The notes beneath the pieces are model-generated. The model had not been told where the DNA came from and did not search any database. It was given only the letters and a program-made list of their open reading frames with translations. This document shows, piece after piece, positions 2,106-6,063 of a stretch of DNA of 6,063 nucleotides. Source of the DNA: a virus; the IMG/VR virus record IMGVR_UViG_3300020030_000106, positions 1 to 6,063 of that record. One strand, 5' to 3'. The position numbers were made by a program, and so were the translations under genes. Every line of letters begins with the position of its first letter. The first letter of the stretch is position 1.

Positions 2106-2297
2106 ATGCCTGATATTAAACAACCTTTCTATAAGTCGAAGGCTTTTTGGACGCTCGTTTCGTCTATTGTTGCTGCCCTGGCTGCCTTTTTCCTTGCGTC
2201 TTGCTCGGCTCAAGCTAGGGTGCAGCGTAGTGGTGTTCACGTCGACACTGTTCGTGTTGATTACATTATTCGTTCTAACAATTTAACTCAGATGTAG
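2106..2297 (+). CDS. Small predicted lipoprotein, 63-aa precursor with a 31-aa mature part
   Basis: ATG 2106, TAG 2295..2297, one nt before the VP2 ATG. The sequence MPDIKQPFYKSKAFWTLVSSIVAALAAFFLASC has a Lys-rich n-region, a ~17-residue hydrophobic core and a lipobox L-A-S-C (Cys33, codon 2202..2204). The track start at 1995 would bury this signal peptide behind 37 residues that have atypical codons and overlap the stem structure, so I prefer 2106. Confidence 0.55.
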   Translation: MPDIKQPFYKSKAFWTLVSSIVAALAAFFLASCSAQARVQRSGVHVDTVRVDYIIRSNNLTQM

Positions 2298-2298
2298 T

Positions 2299-3558
2299 AT
2301 GCCTATTCCTGTTGCCGCTGCTGCTTCTTTTGGACAGGCTCTTGGTCAGTCTGCTGCCTCTACTGGCTCTTCCGGCCTGATTAATGGTTTTTTGGGTCAG
2401 CTTTTTGGCGGCATGAATGCTCGTCGCCAATGGCGATTTCAGCAGAAACAAATGAAGCTTCAGCAGAAGTACGCCCTCGAGCAGATGCAGAAGCAATCCG
2501 AACTTTCTTATGCTAATTGGCAAAGACAGTTTGACTATGAAAACGCTTACAACGATCCTTCGAAGGTCTTCGATCGCTACTTGAAAGCCGGTGTTACGCC
2601 TGCTGCAGTGCTTGGCTCTTCCGGTGTTGGTGTGAATGCTACTATGTCCGGTGGTTCTGCAGGTATGCCTTCCGCTTCTGGTCCTTCAGGTGGTGCACCT
2701 GTTTCCCCTGGCGCTTTTGCTCCTGGCGATCCTGCTGCTATTGCGCAAAACATGATTGCGCGTTCTACGGTTGATCGTAATACTGCTGCCGCTAATCGAG
2801 ATGAGGCAGAGGCTGATAATCTTCGTGGTAATACTCATACTCAGGATTGGCGTAAACGGATGGATGATCTTGAGTTGCAGATTGCTCAGCATAATGTTAA
2901 AGATGCCCGTGAACTTGCTAATCTTCGTGAGGCACAGGCTCAAATTGGAGCAATCGACGCTTACCTTTCTAGTATTACGCAGGGTTACAAAATGTCCTCT
3001 ATTATGGCCATGGCTGGTATTTTGGAAGAAAAGTACCAAAATCTCCGTTTGACGAATGATTGGTTCGAACCTCAAGCCGGCGCGGCTCTTGCTGTTGCCT
3101 GGTCTTCCGCAATCGCAAATGTTTCCTCTGCTGCTGAATCTGAATCTCGTATAAAGCTTAACGCCCAGGAACTTAAGGATATGCAAAACTGGTACGAGTT
3201 GAATTGGAAAAAGGATGTTCCCGTTCAGATTCGTAATGATAAAGGTGAAGTCGTTGAGACTAAAATGATGAAAGTTGCTGAGACTATGGCTATTTTGAAG
3301 TCCGCTGCTGCTGAAGCGGCTCAGCTTGAAACTGGAAATGCCCGTTGGGATTTGCGTAACTCCAGGCTTCGTCTTGCTCATGACGTTGTTCGATCTTTCG
3401 CCACCGCCGCAGGCATTGCCGGCGCTTCGTATGTTGGCCGCAAGGCTGCAGGTCCTGCCGGTCCTGAAGGTTATGAGGAAGTGAGAGAGATTTACGGTCC
3501 TTCAGGTACCCCCACTGGTAGTACCTTTACTCGTCGCAGCTATCTTGGGAGAAATTGA
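2299..3558 (+). CDS. VP2: Minor capsid / DNA pilot protein (Microviridae VP2, phiX H-like), 419 aa
   Basis: ATG 2299, TGA 3556..3558. The N-terminal segment is Gly/Ala/Ser-rich and hydrophobic (MPIPVAAAASFGQALGQSAASTGSSGLINGFLGQLFGG), reminiscent of the phiX174 H N-terminus. It is followed by Q/K/E-rich heptad-like stretches (RRQWRFQQKQMKLQQKYALEQMQKQ) and a motif YNDPSKVFDRYLKAGVTPAAVLG that resembles the conserved ...K-x-AGLNP-x-L region of gokushovirus VP2. Size and position fit a pilot protein. Confidence 0.85.
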   Translation: MPIPVAAAASFGQALGQSAASTGSSGLINGFLGQLFGGMNARRQWRFQQKQMKLQQKYALEQMQKQSELSYANWQRQFDYENAYNDPSKVFDRYLKAGVTPAAVLGSSGVGVNATMSGGSAGMPSASGPSGGAPVSPGAFAPGDPAAIAQNMIARSTVDRNTAAANRDEAEADNLRGNTHTQDWRKRMDDLELQIAQHNVKDARELANLREAQAQIGAIDAYLSSITQGYKMSSIMAMAGILEEKYQNLRLTNDWFEPQAGAALAVAWSSAIANVSSAAESESRIKLNAQELKDMQNWYELNWKKDVPVQIRNDKGEVVETKMMKVAETMAILKSAAAEAAQLETGNARWDLRNSRLRLAHDVVRSFATAAGIAGASYVGRKAAGPAGPEGYEEVREIYGPSGTPTGSTFTRRSYLGRN

Positions 3559-3581
3559 ACAGTTTTTTCGACTTTTTGATC

Positions 3582-3613
3582 TTTGCGTGTTGTGTTCTTT
3601 TGTTGTAACTTTG
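3582..3613 (+). promoter_or_regulatory. Candidate Bacteroides-type promoter (-33 TTTG / -7 TAnnTTTG)
   Basis: TTTG at 3582..3585 and TAACTTTG at 3606..3613 are separated by 20 nt, 28 nt upstream of ATG 3641, in the T-rich VP2-to-ORF spacer. In such T/G-rich sequence a chance match is quite possible. Confidence 0.25.
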
Positions 3614-3640: not shown

Positions 3641-3952
3641 ATGAAAAAAAACAAGTTCAATCGCAGTCTCCTCACCCTGGATGTCGCTGATTATCTGTTT
3701 GTTGAATGGCTTATCCGTAATGATTGCTATTCGAAGTTCGCGGCGAATCTTTCTGGTAACTCCGATTGCGATATTCCCCGAGAGGCTATTCGCTGCCATC
3801 TCTCTCTTATTTTGCGTAGTAACTCTATGACTCTTCGCAATGCGATTTCTACGGCCTTCCTGTTTCTTCATACGCCCGAAGGCGAAGACTATTGGTGCTC
3901 CATCGAACTGAGGTGGATAGCTTTTCTTGATGAGTTTAATGTTCAACTTTAA
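3641..3952 (+). CDS. Hypothetical protein, 103 aa, no recognisable family
   Basis: ATG 3641 (the track start 3545 is a TTG that overlaps the VP2 end), TAA 3950..3952. Codon usage resembles the core genes (ctt, cgt, tct, gat). It contains four Cys and starts with an A8 run (3644..3651). Confidence 0.55.
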   Translation: MKKNKFNRSLLTLDVADYLFVEWLIRNDCYSKFAANLSGNSDCDIPREAIRCHLSLILRSNSMTLRNAISTAFLFLHTPEGEDYWCSIELRWIAFLDEFNVQL

Positions 3953-3964
3953 ATTTTTTTTCTT

Positions 3965-4288
3965 ATGACACAGATTCATGTCGTTATTCGGCGATCTAAT
4001 CCCTCTTTCAAAATTGACCTTGTCCAGGTTGGTCATATCCAGGAAGGTCAGTTCGCCACTCTTCCTTTTGACACACTTAACTGCGCGCCTCTTACGTCCT
4101 TTATAAAGCGTTCCAGTATCTCTGATTCGCCTTATATTGACCATAGCGATGTTTCTCGTCTTGTGGAGGCTTTAACCATGTATTTGAACTTCGCAGTCGA
4201 GTTTTTCGACAATACGCTTGTTCTTATGTTTGACCTTAATCTTGATCATAATGAAAGCACGTCGGAAGAAGAAGGGAAAGGGAACTAA
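3965..4288 (+). CDS. Hypothetical protein, 107 aa, acidic C-terminal tail, no recognisable family
   Basis: ATG 3965, TAA 4286..4288, 12 nt after the previous stop, across a T8 run and in the same frame. By hand count 18 of its first 40 codons end in T, as in the core genes. The tail is DHNESTSEEEGKGN. Confidence 0.6.
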   Translation: MTQIHVVIRRSNPSFKIDLVQVGHIQEGQFATLPFDTLNCAPLTSFIKRSSISDSPYIDHSDVSRLVEALTMYLNFAVEFFDNTLVLMFDLNLDHNESTSEEEGKGN

Positions 4289-4335
4289 AGTAGTTACCCG
4301 CCCGCTTGGTGGCCGAGTCCTCTAGTTTATTGTAT

Positions 4336-4359
4336 CCCGGGAGAGAATCCTCTCCTGGG
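4336..4359 (+). other. Hairpin: 10-bp stem, AATC loop
   Basis: cccgggagag-aatc-ctctcctggg; ten consecutive pairs, including one G-T/G-U wobble (4339-4356). Confidence 0.6.
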
Positions 4360-4421
4360 CTTTCTTGCTCGCAAACTCACCGAACTCGTTCGGTATATCC
4401 CTTGTGTAGTGGAGCCACGGA

Positions 4422-4462
4422 GCTCGAAGACGCGTAGCGTCCCGGCCGTTAGGCCGTCGAGC
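4422..4462 (+). other. Compact three-way junction (41 nt, 16 bp)
   Basis: The closing stem pairs 4422..4427 with 4457..4462 (gctcga/tcgagc). Arm A pairs 4429..4433 with 4437..4441 (gacgc-gta-gcgtc). Arm B pairs 4443..4447 with 4452..4456 (cggcc-gtta-ggccg). The junction linkers are 1, 1 and 0 nt. Confidence 0.55.
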
Positions 4463-4482
4463 GGCGTAACGAAACAGTTTTC

Positions 4483-4511
4483 GCGCTCGAAAGTGCCGTC
4501 TTTCGAAGCGC
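4483..4511 (+). other. Hairpin: 11-bp stem with one bulged A, 6-nt loop
   Basis: gcgctcgaaag-tgccgt-ctttcga(a)gcgc; A4507 is bulged. The stem ends 20 nt before ATG 4532 and is followed by TATTTTTG (4519..4526), which matches TAnnTTTG. Confidence 0.55.
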
Positions 4512-4531
4512 ATGGTAATATTTTTGTTGTT

Positions 4532-4732
4532 ATGGATAGATTTGATTTTCGTCCTAGATTTTCTCCGATAGTTAATAGTATTCCTTATCGTTATTCTATT
4601 GGTGCATATCGCGGAAAAAAACGAGTTATTATTGCTTGGTTTTCCGACGAAGAACCTGCTAATGATTACCTTGCTCGCTGTCGTTTTGATCATCCTGGTG
4701 TTAAATTTGATTGCCTTCGAAGTTTACTCTAA
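4532..4732 (+). CDS. Hypothetical small protein, 66 aa, stop/start-overlapped with Rep
   Basis: ATG 4532; TAA 4730..4732 overlaps Rep ATG 4732..4734 (TAATG). T-rich third codon positions resume exactly here. The track start (GTG 4409) lies in the G3-rich structured spacer and is less likely. Confidence 0.5.
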   Translation: MDRFDFRPRFSPIVNSIPYRYSIGAYRGKKRVIIAWFSDEEPANDYLARCRFDHPGVKFDCLRSLL

Positions 4733-5802
4733 TGCCCTGTTCATCGCCCATATGGATACGGAATCGCCGTTATTTCGACAAGAAGAATCCTTGTCGCAAC
4801 GGTTCTGATGTCGCAAGGTCTGCTCTTGCCCTTCGGCCCTGGGATGTCGCACGCCAATGGCTTATGGTCCCCTGCGGAAAGTGCGAAGACTGTCTTCGTC
4901 GTCAGCGTAATGATTGGTTTGTGCGCCTGGAGCGCGAACTTGCTTTTTGCAAGGCTAATGATCAGCAGGCTATTTTCATTACAATAACGATCGCCCCGAA
5001 GTATTATAATGAGGCCCTGCTTAATCCTTCTCGATTTATTCGTCGATTCAATGAGCGTTTGCGTCATAAACTTGGTCATTCGTTTAAACATGCTTTTTTC
5101 CAGGAGTTTGGAACTCACCCGGAAACAGGAAACGAACCTCGATTGCATTTTCATGGCTTCCTTTTTGCGACAAATGCCCTTTACAACACTATTCGTTCGG
5201 CCGTTCGAGACCTTGGCTTTGTGTGGTTAGCGAAGGCTACTCACAAGCGTGCTCGTTATTGCGTTAAGTACGTTACTAAACAAATTCATTTTAATCCCGA
5301 AGAAATTTCGGATAAATATGTTACTGTAGATGGAAAACCTACACCTTTATCTTGCCTCCTCCAACATCGCCGCTATACGCGAAAATTCGTATCTGCTGGC
5401 GTTGGTGATTTTCTTGGTTATATGCCTCGCCCTTCTGCTCGTGTTTCGTCGTGGTCTTATTTCGATCTTAAGACTGGTATCGATTATAATTACTCGATTC
5501 CTCGATATTATCTTAAATATCTCAAACCGGAAGACGAAGTTGCTCGCTCAATTACCGCTGCTGATGCTTATGCACGTTTTAGCAAGTCTTCTTTGGTTAA
5601 GCGTATTGTGTCTCTGTGCGTTGAGCGGTTCGCCCTCAATTCCGCCGTATCCCGTAGAGCATCGTATACGTGGGAACAGAAGCAAATGATGCGCTTTTCC
5701 GAATCTTCGCGGAAGATGCCCGACTTTGACCCTCCCACCTGGCTGGATTTGGATATTCTTCGGTTCTGGAGAGATCATTATAAACTTCAACTAATTACTT
5801 AA
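4732..5802 (+). CDS. VP4: Rolling-circle replication initiation protein (Microviridae VP4, phiX A-like HUH endonuclease), 356 aa
   Basis: ATG 4732 gives MPCSSPIWIRN..., a typical VP4 N-terminus (the track start 4711 is a TTG). Supporting motifs are the Cys cluster PCGKCEDCLRRQRNDW, motif 1 FITITI, the HUH motif HFH at 5146..5154 (RLHFHGFLF), and the two-tyrosine motif YCVKYVTK at 5257..5280 with the Y-x-x-x-Y spacing of the phiX174 A active site. TAA at 5800..5802. Confidence 0.93.
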   Translation: MPCSSPIWIRNRRYFDKKNPCRNGSDVARSALALRPWDVARQWLMVPCGKCEDCLRRQRNDWFVRLERELAFCKANDQQAIFITITIAPKYYNEALLNPSRFIRRFNERLRHKLGHSFKHAFFQEFGTHPETGNEPRLHFHGFLFATNALYNTIRSAVRDLGFVWLAKATHKRARYCVKYVTKQIHFNPEEISDKYVTVDGKPTPLSCLLQHRRYTRKFVSAGVGDFLGYMPRPSARVSSWSYFDLKTGIDYNYSIPRYYLKYLKPEDEVARSITAADAYARFSKSSLVKRIVSLCVERFALNSAVSRRASYTWEQKQMMRFSESSRKMPDFDPPTWLDLDILRFWRDHYKLQLIT

Positions 5803-5805
5803 TTT

Positions 5806-6063
5806 ATGGGAAAACAACCTTTTATTTCTCACGCTGTAAATGGCTATTCTCGTTACGATGTTCCTGAGAGTAAGGCCTTTACGTGCACACCGGGTATTTT
5901 GTATCCAGTGCGAATCGATTTTATTAATGCTCGAGATCGTGTATCTATTGAGCAGGGCATCGACGTTCGCAGTAATCCACTCGCTGTTCCGACGTTCAAT
6001 CCCTACACTATTCGACTCCATCGTTTTTGGGTGCCGCTTCAGTTGTATCATCCTGAATTGAGG
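5806..6063 (+). CDS. VP1: Major capsid protein, N-terminal part (runs off the window end; 5943..6063 duplicates 1..121)
   Basis: ATG 5806 lies 3 nt after the Rep stop. The frame is open to the window end, so it is absent from the ORF track, which requires a stop. Translation: MGKQPFISHAVNGYSRYDVPESKAFTCTPGILYPVRIDFINARDRVSIEQGIDVRSNPLAVPTFNPYTIRLHRFWVPLQLYHPELR. Nt 5943 is a third codon position, which matches frame 2 at nt 1..2. Confidence 0.85.
   Translation, partial: MGKQPFISHAVNGYSRYDVPESKAFTCTPGILYPVRIDFINARDRVSIEQGIDVRSNPLAVPTFNPYTIRLHRFWVPLQLYHPELR
5943..6063 (+). repeat. Terminal direct repeat, copy 2 (identical to 1..121)
   Basis: Exact 121-nt identity with the window start. Confidence 0.97.

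Follow-up and report, generated by a model that had tools for sequence, protein, structure and literature searches.

What is a 63-codon gene for an apparent lipoprotein doing directly in front of the pilot gene of a microvirus? The question is raised by nucleotides 2106-2297 of a 6063-nucleotide (nt) stretch of viral DNA, IMG/VR record IMGVR_UViG_3300020030_000106, which was analysed at its full length and is called here the window. An earlier note on this DNA had seen in this open reading frame (ORF) a possible single-gene lysis or release factor, or else a superinfection-exclusion factor. The analysis presented here establishes that the ORF, which we call LPP63 and whose family we call LPP, is a real, strongly constrained core gene, and that its product has every feature of a bacterial lipoprotein precursor that can be read from a sequence. 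We consider the product to be almost certainly a tiny lipoprotein anchored in a membrane, and probably an envelope effector. A part in lysis or egress, possibly together with a membrane protein from a second, overprinted gene, is the role that we would tentatively put forward for it.

LPP63 begins with the ATG at 2106 and ends with the TAG at 2295-2297, and its product is MPDIKQPFYKSKAFWTLVSSIVAALAAFFLASCSAQARVQRSGVHVDTVRVDYIIRSNNLTQM (63 residues). The locus is made up as follows:

2106-2297, + strand: LPP63, the target ORF, 63 codons plus TAG
2106-2144, + strand: n-region of the signal, MPDIKQPFYKSKA, basic through K5, K10 and K12
2145-2201, + strand: hydrophobic h-region and lipobox positions -3 to -1 (F14-S32; L30-A31-S32), placed by hydropathy
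2202-2204, + strand: TGC codon of Cys33, the predicted lipid-modified first mature residue
2202-2294, + strand: mature 31-residue peptide, CSAQARVQRSGVHVDTVRVDYIIRSNNLTQM, a type-1 tail with pN/pS 0.17
1973-2105, + strand: conserved structured non-coding element of 133 nt, which includes a non-conserved ATG at 1995

In the 80 related IMG/VR genomes that form our conservation sample, the same ATG and exactly 63 codons are found without exception. Pairwise dN/dS is ~0.06, with synonymous sites near saturation (pS 0.63), and the three codon positions have entropies of 0.27/0.13/1.11; in the two alternative frames over the same nucleotides the pattern is the opposite, with ratios above 2 and no constraint. 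The median identity of LPP63 to the window in these relatives (86%) is close to that of the replication initiator VP4 (Rep; 89%) and of an acidic 98-amino-acid (aa) ORF (88%), and exceeds that of the major capsid protein VP1 (71%) and the DNA pilot protein VP2 (55%). The ATG of the pilot gene, at 2299, lies one base past the LPP63 stop, 71 of 73 relatives have this very spacing of 1 nt (TAG-T-ATG), and the pilot gene is apparently translationally coupled to LPP63.

About half of the public gene calls take instead a 100-aa form that begins at 1995. The earlier note had read the ORF from 2106, and the comparison bears out that reading: the ATG at 1995 is not conserved, 33 of the 80 relatives have a stop in this frame within five codons upstream of 2106, and in others the frame is shifted. 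The appearance of conservation in the 100-aa form arises because the nucleotides that it adds belong to the non-coding element, which is kept even in a genome that lacks LPP. It is next to inconceivable that 2106-2297 is a chance ORF or merely the end of an N-terminally extended protein, as the invariant start and length and the strong coding signature speak against the first and the interrupted or shifted upstream frame against the second; what speaks for the longer form is its use in the public calls, and it was rejected here. The element itself has a 5' core (CTTTACTTGACGATATATGCTACGTGCGCGG; CTTTACTTGACGATATATGYTAYGTGCGCGG) that is invariant, next an interior that varies and then CCGCGCATTTTTCTATCGTTCTTT, and its predicted fold is closed by a GC stem that is followed by the T-run TTTTTCTATCGTTCTTT. 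A blastn match to it is present in 144 of 158 genomes, among them the LPP-less L097 (bajarodmic virus 760, PQ006994.1), and 13 of its 20 predicted consensus pairs show compensatory changes. We take its core to resemble the phiX174 origin CAACTTGATATTAATAAC, and the element may be an origin and/or a terminator.

The Lys-rich n-region, the L-A-S-C lipobox with Cys33 and the 31-aa mature peptide described in the earlier note were all recovered on re-reading the sequence. The hydrophobic core, F14-S32, is 19 residues long (Kyte-Doolittle 19-residue maximum 2.12) and ends in the lipobox L30-A31-S32-C33. The PROSITE rule PS51257 asks for an N-terminal Met, a K or R in the first seven residues, a Cys at positions 15-35, an uncharged hydrophobic stretch and, before the Cys, the pattern [LIVMFWSTAG](2)-[LIVMFYSTAGCQ]-[AGS]-C. 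LPP63 satisfies the full rule (K5; AALAAF-FL-A-S-C33), as do 147 of 159 family members. Among the remaining ORFs of 40 aa or more that the same 158 genomes contain in their six frames, 26 of 4253 (0.6%) do so. Cys33 is kept in 81 of 81 close sequences and is an invariant column in a diverse alignment; among the 46 representatives at or below 80% identity that make up the diverse set, 43 have the Cys at the fixed position and the remainder are one-residue register shifts. The preceding position is S in 29 of these representatives, G in 9, A in 5 and C in 2 (S, G or A in 43 of 46), positions -3 and -2 of the lipobox are the most variable of the whole hydrophobic segment, and the distance from the Trp to the Cys is 18 residues in 40 of 46. 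Columns K12, W15, F29 and C33 are invariant across the superfamily and F14, T16, L17, V22, A23 and A24 nearly so.

The strongest comparative argument for a functional lipobox comes from Dulem virus 210 (L095), in which a tail of another type stands behind an unrelated signal peptide that again ends ...FFCS-C, so that the Cys junction has been kept across unrelated signal peptides. On these grounds we infer that Cys33 is lipidated and that signal peptidase II cleaves in front of it. Conservation is higher in the signal peptide (pN/pS 0.10) than in the tail (0.17). An AlphaFold2 (AF2) model of the 63-aa product is one long helix, with pLDDT 86-92 in the hydrophobic segment and 56-70 in the tail. 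A single conserved face on a transmembrane (TM) helix, comprising W15, V22, F29 and C33, was considered and dropped, as conservation shows no helical periodicity (permutation p = 0.44). One relative, L096, has an atypical Glu at lipobox position -2.

The mature part comes in at least three tail types. In type 1, that of the window, the motif G-[VIL]-H-x-D-[TS]-V is invariant among the members; the mature LPP63 peptide has a net charge of +2, has no acidic residues directly after the Cys, and contains neither proline nor an additional cysteine. Type 2 (...SGDTTRTTITYEQVGNFK; ~32 aa) stands behind the same signal and lipobox in the close capsid relatives L093, L094 and L096, which had seemed to lack LPP and in fact carry this type, and the other tail types are 30-36 residues long. 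The type-2 copies are:

L093, 2560-2757: type-2 copy
L094, 2982-3179: type-2 copy, found by eye in a genome from human faeces
L096, ~3390-3590: type-2 copy
L095 (Dulem virus 210), 2392-2628: type-2 copy behind the unrelated signal peptide

A motif of β-strand character, D-[TS]-[ILVM]-x-[VIL], is present in 23 of 46 tails, as against 0.9 in shuffles. We take it to resemble a TonB box, although the count reflects common descent and is thus not independent evidence.

How far does the family reach? Among 5.8 billion proteins there are 342 homologues (at 90% clustering), nearly all on microvirus-sized contigs, and an exhaustive profile search of 1.84 billion representatives returned only 64 clusters at 50% identity and no cellular homologues. 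The clusters read back proved to be short proteins of microvirus type or else long ORFs with the LPP module at the start; a repetitive 564-aa sequence with E ~1e-5 was set aside as a probably spurious match to the family. With tblastn, LPP was found in 42 deposited microvirus genomes, from the faeces of pig, dog, bird, civet, musk deer, rodent, tortoise and lemur. The sole match among 185,579 species genomes is an integrated microvirus prophage of Alistipes montrealensis (L092), and the family is confined to faecal microviruses and this prophage, whose possession of LPP places Bacteroidales within the host range. The earlier note had pointed to syntenic small lipobox ORFs in related genomes as something to look for, and they are there: in the window's clade LPP lies directly 5' of the pilot gene. 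In a second group of genomes (group 2) it lies between the pilot and Rep genes, and in the Alistipes prophage the order is LPP, VP4, VP1, an ORF and VP2. The LPP of that prophage is 76% identical to the window's over residues 10-60, while its VP1 is only ~25% identical; either the virion proteins are much less conserved than the LPP module, or lineages have exchanged the module. LPP63 found nothing in Pfam (63-aa and 100-aa forms, E <= 0.1), PHROGs, NCBIfam or the sequences of PDB chains, and its best match in PADLOC, at E ~0.02, is to the uncharacterised candidate PDC-M02A. A contig look-up by the exact sequence of the LPP63 product gave no record.

ORFs of 160-220 aa, which we call long forms, make up about half of the clusters at 50% identity. 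They consist of the LPP module, an unalignable Ser/Thr-rich linker of ~120 aa that is overprinted on a real gene in another frame, and a conserved end in which a hydrophobic stretch of 11-15 residues is followed by RRGGRRGRPRPK..IPLGGSHL; this end has no start codon of its own. The long forms are:

L092, 6977-7585: long form in the Alistipes montrealensis prophage
L085, 4097-4672: long form
L130-L136 and L147: further genomes with long forms
P0125-P0167: long-form proteins

When the overlapped gene was randomised synonymously, the long frame was free of stops by chance in 4-49% of trials, depending on the genome; as the sample was moreover ascertained for open frames, we make no claim that the read-through is selected. 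The long-form end resembles the product, MKARRKKKGKGTKVVTRPLGGRVL, of a separate window gene of 24 codons at 4251-4325, which is kept in 75 of 80 relatives and has a coding variation pattern (0.16/0.14/0.86 by codon position). We take this product to resemble a small basic DNA-binding peptide of the J/ORF8 type.

A conservation screen of all hydrophobic ORFs brought out a second gene that bears on the function of LPP63:

5330-5689, + strand: overprinted ORF of 119 aa with ~3 predicted TM segments and a basic C-terminus, in the +1 frame of Rep (4732-5802)

It is intact in 77 of 80 relatives, with the ATG in 68 of 68 sequences and the stop column in 67 of 68. The normalised synonymous variation of Rep falls from ~0.7 to ~0.2 exactly over nt 5302-5691 and then recovers, with no comparable dip in VP1 or VP2, and the third-position entropy of Rep drops from 1.08 to 0.45 within the overlap. 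Homologous overprinted ORFs occur in divergent genomes of the window's clade. No Pfam or PHROG match was obtained, and only four gene calls among the 5.8 billion proteins correspond to it. Taken together, these sequence comparisons strongly support a hidden, overprinted gene for a polytopic membrane protein, of predicted holin-like or E-like architecture. Among conserved ORFs, strongly hydrophobic, TM-like segments are confined to LPP63 and this ORF, other hydrophobic ORFs being far less consistently intact or devoid of coding evidence, and the overprinted ORF is a lysis candidate at least as good as LPP63. Both were found, with hidden Markov models, in 130 genomes, and by eye in L095, all of these genomes being at least 5.3 kb long; the capsid relative L097 has neither, and no ATG-initiated hydrophobic ORF of 45 aa or more was found in it. 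The sampling favoured LPP carriers, and so this co-occurrence is suggestive only. Group-2 genomes contain, inside their different Rep gene, hydrophobic alternative-frame ORFs that are similar to one another, although the sequences are few:

L092, 7997-8212: alternative-frame ORF in the Rep gene
L130, 3329-3649: alternative-frame ORF in the Rep gene
L132, 1601-1921: alternative-frame ORF in the Rep gene
L133, 4387-4707: alternative-frame ORF in the Rep gene

Which known system does LPP63 come closest to? Like the colicin and cloacin lysis lipoproteins (PF02402, Lysis_col), it is a tiny lipobox precursor with a mature part of ~30 residues, its 31 residues falling within the ~27-35 expected of colicin-release-type lipoproteins. 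Its signal peptide is unusually conserved, and that of the release proteins is described as stable and as having a function in release (references 16-18 listed in PMC5727409). The setting is also alike, in that a small mobile replicon without a cell-wall hydrolase must release a macromolecular product from a Gram-negative cell. In contrast, LPP63 has no Lysis_col match (Pfam E <= 0.1; none in NCBIfam), is encoded by a phage of Bacteroidales rather than by SOS-controlled plasmids of Enterobacteriaceae, and has a conserved tail motif of its own, G-x-H-x-D-T-V; the release proteins, for their part, cause leakage through activation of phospholipase, and the freeing of virions is not known for them. 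With the spanins (the o-spanin Rz1; T1 gp11) LPP63 shares that it is a small phage lipoprotein, predicted to be periplasmic, which might serve at the last step of Gram-negative lysis. Unlike an o-spanin it has no i-spanin partner: on its two sides stand the non-coding element and the pilot gene, and the one further conserved ORF for a hydrophobic membrane protein, situated within Rep, is polytopic. No holin-endolysin cassette or muralytic enzyme was found in the window with Pfam, PHROGs or NCBIfam. Nor is it a unimolecular spanin such as T1 gp11, since it ends 31 residues past the Cys without a C-terminal membrane segment; the layout of the long forms, with a lipoprotein signal and a C-terminal hydrophobic and basic end, is reminiscent of gp11, and we treat this as a lead only.

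T5 Llp and phi80/N15 Cor are likewise small phage lipoproteins that act periplasmically on the envelope, and LPP relatives, too, occur in a prophage. They differ in that LPP63 finds no match to them with Pfam, PHROGs or PADLOC or among the chain sequences of the PDB, has roughly half the size of mature Llp, and belongs to a family that is a core conserved gene across phages with very different capsids. phiX174 E (PF04517, Microvir_lysis) is a small membrane-targeted microvirus protein whose hydrophobic N-terminal segment is the most conserved, as in LPP63, but E, which lacks a lipobox and is overprinted inside gene D, is an uncleaved TM inhibitor of MraY, whereas LPP63 occupies coding space of its own, carries a lipobox and gives no Pfam match to E; the closer analogue of E-in-D in the window is the ORF at 5330-5689 inside Rep. 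From the entericidins and proteins of the phiKT gp28 type it differs in that its tail is not a cationic amphipathic α-helix, and in Pfam it has no match to them. LPP63 resembles the colicin-release lipoproteins and o-spanins in architecture and E in setting, and falls outside each of them by sequence or context. It is akin to the small envelope lipoproteins of phages and plasmids, in a virus family in which none has been characterised.

If LPP63 acts in lysis or egress, the following course can be envisaged. The precursor would be exported by Sec, Cys33 would be diacylglycerol-modified by Lgt, and signal peptidase II would remove the 32-residue signal peptide to leave a 31-aa, weakly cationic lipopeptide. 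The export of lipoproteins to the surface of Bacteroidota needs acidic residues after the Cys, and as LPP63 has none there it should stay anchored facing the periplasm. Late in infection the lipopeptide would act on the host envelope in phage exit, its most plausible partner being the polytopic inner-membrane protein from 5330-5689: this protein would make a lesion in the cytoplasmic membrane and the lipopeptide, possibly with a contribution from its conserved signal peptide, would destabilise the outer layers. Such a step would be comparable to that of the colicin-release lipoproteins or the spanins, in a genome without a recognisable cell-wall hydrolase. The position of LPP63, 1 nt before the low-copy pilot gene and past a terminator-like hairpin, suggests that the two would be co-expressed late and at a low level.

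Several observations lead us to favour this role. Only two conserved ORFs have TM-like segments, and no enzyme, muralytic, holin or lysis domain was found in any window ORF with Pfam, PHROGs or NCBIfam. LPP63 behaves as a core gene across very different capsids, which points to a conserved host target and argues against matching to a particular capsid or receptor. Its signal peptide is more conserved than its tail, as might be compared with the stable signal peptides of colicin release. The co-occurrence of LPP with the overprinted ORF and their joint absence in L097, the tight coupling to the pilot gene and the lack of cellular homologues among the 1.84 billion representatives can be added. 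Finally, phiX174 is still the sole microvirus with an understood lysis mechanism (PMC3394797).

A number of points weigh against it. The tail forms no amphipathic α-helix: ten tails were tested, and in each the hydrophobic-moment z lies between -1.6 and +1.0. Nor does AF2 give information on the tail. Tail types have been swapped among close genomes, which fits an arms-race, exclusion or host-interaction gene as well. With Pfam, PHROGs, NCBIfam and the PDB sequences, LPP63 showed no likeness to a family of lysis, release or spanin proteins, its 19-residue h-region is long for a signal peptidase II substrate and could be a stable membrane anchor, and a small lipopeptide by itself leaves unexplained how the peptidoglycan is breached for a virion of ~30 nm. 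In group-2 genomes, the Alistipes prophage included, LPP is present but no counterpart to the overprinted ORF could be recognised (twelve such genomes among those of at least 5.3 kb), and the joint loss of the two comes from one genome, L097, in a sample biased towards LPP carriers. The overprinted ORF alone could be an E-like lysis protein, LPP63 having another job. The single-gene lysis imagined in the earlier note is thus weakened, both by this hidden ORF and by a tail that is non-amphipathic and swapped between types. A role for LPP63 in lysis or egress, possibly with the overprinted membrane protein, nonetheless remains the one that we would tentatively propose. A more specific form of it, an endolysin-free two-part exit module of a large clade of gut Bacteroidales microviruses in which the overprinted inner-membrane protein works with a lipoprotein that either has an effector signal peptide, as in colicin release, or jams lipoprotein maturation, is in our estimate unlikely; less likely again is the added twist that TonB is titrated by the conserved D-T-V-x-V strand of the tail, through mimicry of a TonB box.

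Superinfection exclusion is a classic task of small phage lipoproteins, with T5 Llp, phi80/N15 Cor and the streptococcal Ltp lipoprotein as precedents, and LPP63 might accordingly be a periplasm-facing lipopeptide that protects progeny or excludes superinfecting phages by blocking an envelope component needed for phage entry, be it a receptor, a TonB-type energiser or the path of the pilot tube, expressed from infected cells or prophages. The presence of LPP in an integrated Alistipes prophage would suit this role, as would the exchange of tail types between close relatives, which is what conflict would produce, and the proximity and coupling to the pilot gene; the TonB-box-like motif that half of the representatives keep in the tail can be added, with the caveat on common descent given above. 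We are nevertheless rather doubtful, since LPP is highly conserved while capsid and pilot proteins vary (VP1 25-71%, VP2 55%), is found in every sampled relative of the window's clade save L097, unlike an accessory exclusion gene, evolves with a dN/dS of 0.06, and resembles neither Llp nor Cor nor any PADLOC model beyond E ~0.02. Blocking of the phage's own receptor, in particular, is indirectly disfavoured by the far greater conservation of LPP than of either capsid or pilot proteins.

The remaining explanations place the activity elsewhere. LPP63 might not be cleaved at all and might remain a signal-anchored single-pass peptide whose TM segment inhibits an inner-membrane enzyme of envelope synthesis, as the TM domain of phiX174 E does with MraY, or jams lipoprotein processing. 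Known single-gene lysis proteins are mostly small TM peptides, 19 residues suffice to span the membrane, AF2 is confident only for this helix, and the segment is more conserved than the tail, the most distant clusters keeping it almost unchanged with the tail replaced. Yet Dulem virus 210 has kept tail and Cys behind an unrelated segment, so that tail and Cys matter rather than this one helix; the [SGA]-C junction is present in 43 of 46 representatives while positions -3 and -2 vary freely; there is no single conserved helical face; and PS51257 holds for nearly the whole family. We regard an uncleaved peptide as quite unlikely. It also seems unlikely to us that LPP63 has some other membrane-linked role, such as tethering replication, packaging or assembly to the membrane or modulating the envelope, with the 5330-5689 product as the sole lysis factor. 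This would fit the group-2 module that is read in one frame with a J-like polybasic peptide, an overprinted ORF that is an E-like candidate in its own right, and the coupling to the pilot gene. Against it stand a read-through that is not demonstrably selected (chance 0.04-0.49 per genome, in open frames that were ascertained as such), a J-like peptide that in the window is a separate conserved gene of 24 codons, and the consideration that a periplasmic lipopeptide cannot reach cytoplasmic DNA or procapsids.

The window as a whole is a complete circular microvirus genome with a unit of ~5942 nt; the exact 121-nt terminal repeat (1-121 = 5943-6063) is the signature that assembly leaves of circularity, the capsid gene spans the junction, and all genes are coded on the + strand:

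5806 wrapping to 1663, + strand: major capsid protein VP1 (Pfam Phage_F)
1676-1972, + strand: acidic 98-aa ORF
2299-3558, + strand: DNA pilot protein VP2 (PHROG 8689, 'pilot protein')
3641-3952, 3965-4288 and 4532-4732, + strand: three small ORFs
4251-4325, + strand: J-like 24-codon gene, unannotated, overlapping the 3' end of ORF 3965-4288 in a different frame
4732-5802, + strand: replication initiator VP4 (Rep)

No Shine-Dalgarno-like motif was found in the 25 nt before the starts at 1676, 2106, 2299, 3641, 3965, 4251, 4532, 4732, 5330 and 5806, and the leaders of all window genes are A/T-rich, a combination that fits initiation as in a Bacteroidota host. Scans for sigma-70 promoters and simple terminators gave no more sites than shuffled sequences, the sigma-70 model not being applicable to Bacteroidota promoters. 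The 103-aa ORF at 3641-3952 is by far the least conserved gene in close relatives (median identity 35%, against 55-89% for the others); it may evolve fast and serve in host interaction or anti-defence. The stretch 4326-4531, which separates the J-like gene from the following ORF, is ~200 nt of non-coding sequence, G+C-rich relative to the genome, in which a strong hairpin followed by a T-rich run at 4336-4359 (CCCGGGAGAGAATCCTCTCCTGGG) has the look of a terminator.

The earlier note had supposed that a role of this kind was undescribed in the family. Our searches of the literature library on microviruses and Alpavirinae-type phages found no lipoprotein, spanin-like or lysis gene of the LPP63 kind, and to that extent the supposition stands; the lipoprotein label itself is not new, as a 100-aa form in nr, DAU60727.1, already bears the automated name 'MAG TPA: lipoprotein [Microviridae sp.]'. 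Gene callers mis-start LPP in about half of the public records and miss the overprinted gene almost entirely. In the mammalian gut, microviruses rank with the most abundant phages, and one widespread, Bacteroidales-linked clade of them now has two clonable lysis candidates, a 63-aa lipoprotein and a 119-aa membrane protein, with L097, which has neither, as a natural contrast. The long-standing question of how microviruses other than phiX174 leave their hosts thereby becomes directly testable. Should LPP63 turn out to serve in exclusion, microviruses would have in it their first described factor of this kind; should it instead be the effector of lysis, or one half of that effector, it would be a new phage 'protein antibiotic' that acts from the periplasm of Bacteroidota on a conserved target in the envelope.

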